A DNA stretch of 64,000 nucleotides from a virus: the IMG/VR virus record IMGVR_UViG_3300047325_000150. One strand, 5' to 3'. Under the pieces are notes generated by a model, which did not search any database, had not been told where the DNA came from, and saw only the letters and a list, made by a program, of their open reading frames with translations. How positions within the stretch are numbered: position 1 is the first letter of the stretch; each line of letters starts with the position of its first letter. Positions 61,950 to 62,025 of the stretch are shown one piece after another. The translations under genes were made by a program, and so were the position numbers.

Positions 61950-62025
61950 TGCGGGTTAGAGAAGTGGTCATCTCACCAGGTTCATATCCTGGGAATCGGC
62001 GATTCGAATTCGTCACCCGCTACCA
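61950..62025 (+). tRNA. tRNA-Met (CAT); candidate initiator
   Basis: Acceptor with a U1-U72 mismatch. A11:U24 in D stem GAGA/TCTC. Anticodon arm CCAGG-TTCATAT-CCTGG. T arm GGCGA-TTCGAAT-TCGTC. A73 and CCA. Confidence 0.65.

Follow-up and report, generated by a model that had tools for sequence, protein, structure and literature searches.

A probable initiator-type tRNA(Met) gene in the tRNA cluster of a large phage and the phage-borne family to which it belongs

The closest described system to the gene considered here, a transfer RNA (tRNA) gene with a CAU anticodon at positions 61950-62025 (+) of a 64,000-nucleotide stretch of viral DNA (IMG/VR record IMGVR_UViG_3300047325_000150; hereafter the window; the contig itself is only slightly longer, at 64,809 bp), is the bacterial initiator tRNA(fMet). 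In that molecule the main determinant for the formyltransferase Fmt is a 1:72 mismatch along with pairs 2:71 and 3:70, and the middle pair, G30:C40, is the crucial one of the three G-C pairs of the anticodon stem (PMC5389676). A natural variant in which the first of these pairs is A29:U41, the '1st AU' form, is stated to occur in all alpha-proteobacteria and sustains Escherichia coli (PMC5389676), and the anticodon arm of E. coli tRNAfMet has a special conformation, formed by C32, A37 and A38 with G29:C41 (PMC2528185). Elongator tRNA(Met) and tRNA-Ile2 share the CAU anticodon, A73 and an overall class I cloverleaf with the phage tRNA, but differ from it in their paired 1:72 (G-C or G-U), C11:G24 and other acceptor stems. 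As tRNAscan-SE calls of 'tRNA-fMet' have already been listed for an Eneladusvirus phage (PMC7760394) and for Sinorhizobium prophages (PMC12429752), an initiator-type tRNA in a phage is not new in kind. The first-pass annotation of the window had proposed a candidate phage initiator tRNA, and we support this with moderate confidence: the features, nearest neighbours and profile of the gene fall on the initiator side, the covariance models narrowly so, and it probably encodes a phage-borne initiator-type tRNA(Met).

ARAGORN calls a tRNA-Met(CAT) at exactly 61950-62025 (+), 76 nt long with an encoded CCA, and Rfam RF00005 matches it at 54.2 bits (E = 8.5e-10), mid-range for the surrounding tRNA cluster. 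Its minimum free energy structure is a cleanly formed cloverleaf (-26.9 kcal/mol, z = -2.85) whose stability was equalled by none of 200 shuffled sequences, and canonical tRNA numbering coincides with the linear index of the gene. The acceptor stem sets UGCGGGU (61950-61956) against ACCCGCU (62015-62021), the 3' strand being followed by the discriminator A73 (62022) and CCA (62023-62025). G2-C71, C3-G70, G4-C69, G5-C68, G6-C67 and U7-A66 are all formed, with positions 2-6 (GCGGG) matching the bacterial initiator consensus, and U1 (61950) and U72 (62021) face each other unpaired; this is the only open position among the 21 stem pairs. The D arm, GAGA-AGUGGUCA-UCUC (61959-61974), contains G10-C25, A11 (61960)-U24 (61973), G12-C23 and A13-U22, and is the signature of a phage-borne initiator-like family. 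The anticodon arm (61976-61992) has a CCAGG/CCUGG stem (C27-G43, C28-G42, A29-U41, G30-C40, G31-C39) and a 7-nt loop, UUCAUAU, which presents the anticodon CAU (61983-61985) and has U32 and U38 where C32 and A38 are usual. In the T arm, GGCGA-UUCGAAU-UCGUC (61998-62014), A53:U61 replaces the near-universal G53:C61. All these features lie on the + strand. The U-U at 1:72, the A11:U24 pair and the presence of two rather than three G-C pairs closing the anticodon stem, each remarked on by the first-pass annotation, were borne out by direct reading of the sequence, the exceptional first pair being A29:U41. Furthermore, a Logan sequence assembled independently from run ERR9963758 (L001) shows no difference across window positions 61810-63016, U72 included, so U1xU72 is not an assembly error of the contig. 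Among the 17 tRNAs of its cluster, this tRNA alone has a non-Watson-Crick 1:72.

How far these elements separate initiators from other CAU tRNAs can be judged from a sample of 126 bacterial CAU tRNAs, drawn from the first 120 loci with one genome per GTDB species and spanning very diverse bacteria. The sampling pattern fixed CUCAUAA in the anticodon loop, the T loop and CCA and nothing else, leaving the acceptor, D and anticodon stems free; because it was selected on CUCAUAA, the sample is uninformative on UUCAUAU in cellular initiators. Unsupervised average-linkage clustering on whole-sequence identity yielded three groups containing the annotated E. coli anchors metY (initiator), ileX (Ile CAU) and metT/U (elongator), and 63 initiators were compared with 48 others (21 elongator Met, 27 Ile2). 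Position 1:72 was non-Watson-Crick in 59 of the 63 initiators (CxA 41, CxU 9, UxU 5, CxC 3, AxA 1) and G-C or G-U in all 48 others, with non-pairing in none of them, while 11:24 was A-U in 63/63 initiators and C-G in 48/48 others. These counts uphold the earlier statement that a 1:72 mismatch and A11:U24 mark bacterial initiators (0/48 others for each), as well as its description of elongators as having a paired 1:72 and Y11:R24, since all 21 sampled elongators have G-C or G-U with C11:G24. G30:C40 and A73 were each present in 63/63 initiators, and in the alignment of the sampled initiators (A1) G2:C71 was invariant and C3:G70 at least 90% conserved. The 29:41 pair of the initiators was G-C in 46, A-U in 14 and U-A in 3. 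The worry that two G-C pairs might indicate an elongator or Ile2 tRNA is thereby resolved, because A29:U41/G30:C40/G31:C39 is the natural '1st AU' initiator form. The five initiators with U1xU72 came from Luteibacter, Sedimenticola, Marinobacterium, a Planctomycetaceae metagenome-assembled genome and a further such genome (L086), the last combining UxU with A29:U41 exactly as the phage tRNA does. A11:U24 was rejected as a stand-alone criterion, since Gln, Asn, Pro, Glu and further phage tRNAs share it.

Set beside these classes, the window tRNA resembles bacterial tRNA(fMet) in its CAU anticodon within a 7-nt loop, non-pairing 1:72, G2:C71, C3:G70, G4:C69, A73, A11:U24, G12:C23, G30:C40 and G31:C39; among the initiator traits that it lacks is G29:C41, whose place is taken by A29:U41. 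Of the bacterial forms it comes closest to the '1st AU' variant of Alphaproteobacteria and to the initiators with U1xU72 from Luteibacter, Sedimenticola and Marinobacterium. The paired 1:72 and Y11:R24 of elongator Met are replaced by U1xU72 and A11:U24, and where Ile2 tRNAs have G1:C72, G3:C70, C4:G69, C5:G68 and C11:G24 the phage tRNA has U1xU72, C3:G70, G4:C69, G5:C68 and A11:U24. Overall it is 65% identical to E. coli metY and 49-51% identical to metT and ileX.

Whole-sequence comparison places the gene on the same side. Its 15 nearest neighbours are all initiators (64-71% identity), and it falls in the initiator cluster at k=4. Three home-made isotype covariance models (CMs) with an identical cloverleaf were built from the clusters, namely R1 for initiator, R2 for Ile2 and R3 for elongator Met. 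Held-out E. coli controls were assigned to the correct class with margins of 7-30 bits, the R1/R2/R3 scores being 99.5/61.6/68.9 bits for metY, 59.1/81.8/88.9 for metT and 38/90.8/83.1 for ileX. The phage tRNA scored 61.0 bits with the initiator model, 58.3 with elongator Met and 50.5 with Ile2. A covariance model that classed the gene as elongator Met or Ile2 had been named beforehand as the result that would overturn the initiator proposal; with these home-made models the initiator class came first, by 2.7 bits, a margin that is small in part because the entropy weighting of Infernal leaves each model with 1.3-2 effective sequences and blunts class-specific signals. We also used a full-count, sequence-weighted profile with pair terms, from which the pattern-fixed columns were omitted. 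This gave log-odds of +14.8 bits in favor of initiator against the next-best class, and placed initiator ahead of Ile2 by 23 bits. Leave-one-out scores span +15.8 to +54.8 among initiators, -72 to -27 in the Met class and -100 to -55 in the Ile2 class; the phage tRNA thus scores lower than all 63 bacterial initiators, an outlier that is nevertheless on their side and well away from the two other classes. The initiator signal stems from the classical elements 11:24, 12:23, 29:41, 1:72 and 31:39.

Sequence comparison further assigns the gene to a conserved, covarying family of phage-borne initiator-like tRNAs. Relatives found by blastn include the tRNA-Met genes of Sinorhizobium phage Phosso, Ruegeria phage DSS3_MAL1, Aeromonas phages 65 and avDM6, Yersinia phage fHe-Yen9-04, Erwinia Eneladusvirus phages, Pseudomonas D3, Synechococcus S-CBWM1, Brochothrix A9 and KVP40-like vibriophages; the family is also found in many uncultured phages among IMG/VR contigs, and E. 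coli metY as a query recovered similar tRNAs in 351 phage records. GenBank labels the phage-borne initiator-like tRNA(CAU) genes 'tRNA-Met', and the members named here lie, like the window gene, within phage tRNA clusters. The window tRNA has the traits of the family: the GAGA/AGUGGUCA/UCUC D arm, an NGCGRGN acceptor strand, a weak or absent 1:72 pair, G30:C40 and a location in a phage tRNA cluster. The Phosso gene is 80.5% identical to it, with the first 26 nt unchanged. The UUCAUAU loop is common to the window tRNA, DSS3_MAL1, fHe-Yen9-04 and Erwinia pEa_SNUABM_44, A29:U41 to the window tRNA, Aeromonas 65, S-CBWM1 and A9, and UxU at 1:72 to the window tRNA, S-CBWM1 and an IMG/VR contig (L155). 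Most phage relatives have U1-A72 rather than a mismatch, and several have all three G-C pairs and an AGGUC variable loop and score as clearer initiators than the window tRNA. Their initiator-CM margins range from +15.8 to -0.8 bits, several being clear at +10 to +16, and the second CAU tRNAs that accompany family members are classified by the CMs as Ile2 or Met. Some phage contigs carry an initiator-like, an Ile2-like and a third CAU tRNA together, as in bacteria.

Among 30 distinct phage CAU tRNAs with A11:U24, position 1:72 is U-A in 14, A-U in 2, mismatched in 12 (UxU in 3) and G-C in 2, both of the latter being of a different type. In an alignment of 17 sequences (A4: the window tRNA, 12 phage homologues and 4 bacterial initiators) 10/17 have a mismatch at 1:72, 7/17 have U-A and none has G-C, whereas the other 20 pairs are 94-100% paired and 16 of those 20 have changed on both sides. 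Such a contrast between covarying stems and an open or U-A terminal position is what selection for a terminal pair that is weak or missing would be expected to leave, and is initiator behavior. A53:U61 is unique to the window tRNA in this alignment; the 16 other sequences have G-C there and pairing is kept, so that, judged against its homologues, the change is a compensated double one.

Two further features of phage CAU tRNAs were seen during these comparisons. A subgroup of the initiator-like family, to which Phosso, Vibrio phage phi-ST2 and a number of IMG/VR contigs belong (loci L126:12001-12077, L131:151-224 and L139/L140/L142/L143/L145) has a single bulged nucleotide in the acceptor 3' strand together with U31:A39 or U31-G39, the bulge being kept across unrelated phages. 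In addition, the 291,658-bp contig L155 bears two adjoining initiator-like CAU tRNAs at 1122-1283, both with U1xU72, one of which has the UUCAUAU loop and three G-C pairs and the other CUCAUAA and U29:A41.

Several observations weigh against the initiator assignment. The initiator CM leads elongator Met by no more than those 2.7 bits, and tRNA-Asn of the same phage shows a larger initiator-minus-Met difference (50.8 vs 43.6 bits) because it shares its D arm with tRNA(CAU). Profile log-odds fall to +3.2 bits when 1:72 and 11:24 are removed and to -5.8 bits when all classical elements are, so the class assignment rests on the classical identity elements and the remaining body is divergent. Within that body the conserved initiator C13:G22, G26, AGGUC variable loop and CUCAUAA anticodon loop are represented by A13:U22, A26, GAAUC and UUCAUAU; the bacterial D arm GAGC/AGNNNGGUA/GCUC corresponds to GAGA/AGUGGUCA/UCUC; G53:C61, near-invariant in initiators, is A:U; and U32 and U38 stand for the near-invariant C32 and A38. 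A11:U24 is also present in tRNA-Gln(UUG) and tRNA-Asn(GUU) of the same cluster, and R11:Y24 in several non-Met phage tRNAs. Nine IMG/VR loci whose 5' 25 nt are identical to those of the window gene all have U1-A72, and U72 could therefore be a recent single mutation. Finally, a Pfam scan of about 60 window open reading frames (ORFs) found no fmt, def, infA/B/C, tilS or metG (encoding MetRS), so that the check for tilS, fmt and initiation factor genes suggested by the first-pass annotation came back empty for the ORFs scanned; the lack of fmt, def, initiation factor and MetRS genes counts against an initiator, and that of tilS against an Ile2 reading.

These points give some room to the view that the gene encodes an elongator or dual-purpose Met tRNA in which U1-A72 has simply mutated to U1xU72. 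An elongator model that scores 58.3 bits, a body that is neutral or slightly elongator-like beyond the identity elements, and a Watson-Crick U1-A72 in the nearest family members, which could permit EF-Tu binding, are all consistent with it. So too are the facts that this is the sole CAU tRNA called by ARAGORN within the window and that Aeromonas phage 65.2 has an initiator-like and an Ile2-like tRNA and no separate elongator-like Met. We nevertheless regard it as unlikely, as neither a non-pairing 1:72 nor A11:U24 was seen in any of the 48 bacterial elongator-Met and Ile2 tRNAs, true elongators score -27 bits or lower on the profile, acceptor positions 2-6 follow the initiator consensus, G30:C40 and G31:C39 are kept, and G-C at 1:72 is confined to 2 of the 30 A11:U24 phage CAU tRNAs and missing from all 17 aligned sequences. 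A tRNA-Ile2, in which C34 would be converted to lysidine by TilS so that the tRNA reads AUA and is charged with isoleucine, would also have a CAU anticodon; AUA-reading tRNAs are often supplied by phages, and Ile2-like CAU tRNAs adjoin family members in Aeromonas phages. Its CM score is the lowest of the three, however, the profile favors initiator by 23 bits, the five pairs typical of the 27 sampled Ile2 tRNAs are lacking and the scanned ORFs include no tilS, which together make an Ile2 identity highly improbable.

A decaying or non-translational copy, whether as a pseudogene, as a decoy for nucleases or as a target of recombination beside a resolvase gene, whose initiator-like features were inherited and are no longer used, would account for the divergent body, A53:U61, the altered loop and a profile score under that of every bacterial initiator. 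Its surroundings lend this some color, with a clearly degenerate second initiator-like CAU element at 60925-60999 and with tRNA fragments and a serine recombinase gene directly downstream. However, 20 of the 21 stem pairs are intact, the change at 53:61 is compensated, CCA is encoded, the Rfam score is mid-range for the cluster, and the same loop and D arm are kept across many unrelated phages, which argues for selection. We consider both decay and the disuse of inherited features to be quite improbable.

If the gene does specify an initiator-type tRNA(Met), we infer aminoacylation, formylation, P-site use and a biological role from its identity elements. Host MetRS would be expected to charge it through the CAU anticodon and A73, and the host formyltransferase would then formylate the Met-tRNA on account of its open 1:72, the G2:C71 and C3:G70 pairs next to it, and A73. 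The open 1:72 should also make it a poor ligand of EF-Tu and a poor substrate of peptidyl-tRNA hydrolase, and IF2 together with G30:C40 and G31:C39 would direct it to the 30S P site. Its likely role would be to supplement or replace the host pool of initiator tRNA during infection, within a module of tRNA and tRNA-repair genes.

The gene content of the window, including rIIA, rIIB, a sigma-70 family factor and an AAA ATPase, is that of a large phage. Seventeen tRNA genes, tRNA(CAU) among them, form a co-directional cluster at 56714-63360 (+) by ARAGORN and Rfam. A dense tRNA and RNA-repair module occupies window positions 31022-37090 and 42714-54507 and encodes a YqeY-like protein, AspRS, an RlaP RNA-repair nucleotidyltransferase, a SpoU methylase, a ligase-like protein, QueD/PTPS, a cytidine/adenosine deaminase-like protein, a CCA-adding enzyme and Thg1. 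Acb1 (anti-CBASS) is encoded at 20903-21352 (-), an ArdC-like anti-restriction protein/metallopeptidase at 39914-40873 (-), and a non-specific endonuclease gene is also present. Megablast against a phage collection returned no match to the window phage, and IMG/VR contained no exact copy of the tRNA(CAU) gene and no relative of its Thg1; unlike the known family members, this phage is without a close relative in either resource. A metagenome scan with the 17-nt anticodon arm gave mostly chance matches in coding sequences, and the 12 tRNAs among its hits included no close relative. At the protein level the top matches, 28-48% identical, come from phages of Alphaproteobacteria, which offers only a weak hint to the host. 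Inferring a host from A29:U41 was rejected as weak, the pair being found also in Aeromonas and cyanophage family members.

A serine recombinase/resolvase ORF (PF00239) at 62210-62800 (+) lies inside the tRNA cluster, 185 nt downstream of tRNA(CAU), with an N-terminal helix-turn-helix-like segment reminiscent of IS607 TnpA, and is followed by a short 54-aa ORF at 62811-62975. On the opposite strand, a zinc-finger/HNH-like ORF at 59198-60001 (-), assigned to phrog_23051 and weakly matching the HNH endonuclease phrog_1271, is probably a homing endonuclease. The second CAU element, at 60925-60999 (+) directly after tRNA-Gln(CUG), has C1xU72, G2:C71, C3:G70, A73, A11:U24, U29:A41, G30:C40, G31:C39 and a UUCAUAC loop and is without G18G19 and a T-Psi-C loop; it scored 30.7 bits with the initiator CM and 22.7 with the Met CM, was missed by default ARAGORN and by Rfam, and is probably a decayed paralogue. 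Between tRNA(CAU) and the resolvase ORF, positions 62060-62130 (+) contain, in order, a T-arm-like GTTGGTTCGATTCCAAC, ACAACAT, GCAA, ATGTTGT and a D-arm-like GTGTAGTGGTAGCAC, that is, a tRNA 3' half and then the matching 5' half, which may be the remnants of a tandem tRNA gene pair or a permuted tRNA-like arrangement.

Among the other tRNAs, five 'tRNA-Leu' genes on the + strand (57310-57387, 57397-57473, 58278-58358, 58366-58444 and 63195-63271; anticodons UAA twice, UAG once and CAA twice) are 77-81 nt long and have Leu-like D arms without the long variable arm of class II tRNAs; the annotated tRNA-Leu genes of Sinorhizobium phage Phosso are likewise short, at 77-79 nt. The tRNA-Asn(GUU) at 60368-60440 (+) has A33 where U33 is universal, has G37, and is weak in the acceptor stem, three of whose pairs are G-U. 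In its D arm (GAGAAGTGGTTATCTC) it nearly matches the initiator-like tRNA and departs from other phage Asn tRNAs, which suggests recombination between tRNA genes. A sub-threshold Rfam match to YrlA (Y RNA-like; 30.8 bits against a gathering score of 69) covers 58461-58570 (+), and two weak extra tRNA-like matches lie at 57997-58068 (+), with a UGC anticodon, an Ala-like G3:U70 and an aberrant T arm, and at 58581-58649 (+).

The altered anticodon loop is the only unusual aspect of what is otherwise a plausible and fairly ordinary find. Initiator tRNA is cleaved by VapC toxins, and loop mutations have been proposed as a way for phage tRNAs to evade anticodon nucleases (PMC10264068; PMC12482277). 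The U32/U38 loop recurs in phage initiator-like tRNAs on contigs of 31-56% G+C, and IMG/VR holds 17 loci with UUCAUAU; one metagenomic example (L240) adjoins a homing endonuclease on a phage-like contig. UUCAUAU, with its U32 and U38, or U37 could give resistance to host toxins, VapC-type PIN nucleases for instance, by which the initiator anticodon stem-loop is cut, and a nuclease-resistant spare initiator is a plausible hypothesis. The broader proposition, that a phage-specific initiator tRNA lineage with a common D arm and a nuclease-resistant U32/U38 or U37 loop has spread horizontally among T4-like, jumbo, siphoviral and cyanophages that are not related to one another, is one that we would put forward only tentatively and think rather doubtful. 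If it were true, a spare nuclease-proof initiator would keep translation initiation going during abortive-infection responses, and RlaP, the ligase-like protein, the CCA-adding enzyme, Thg1 and Acb1 would fit a counter-defence island.

The tRNA genes of phages are usually explained by codon supply, an explanation that an initiator tRNA misfits because it is needed by every gene. Phage initiator-type tRNAs are widespread, little studied and already known in kind, and for their annotation the comparisons made here mean that the label 'tRNA-Met' in many phage records conceals initiator-type genes, and that U1xU72 and A29:U41 are legitimate initiator variants. The recurring phage loop variant provides a concrete link to the idea of anticodon-nuclease evasion (PMC10264068). 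If the tRNA of the window is functional, a large phage would secure its own first step of translation, beside the AspRS, CCA-adding enzyme, Thg1 and RNA-repair enzymes that it also encodes.

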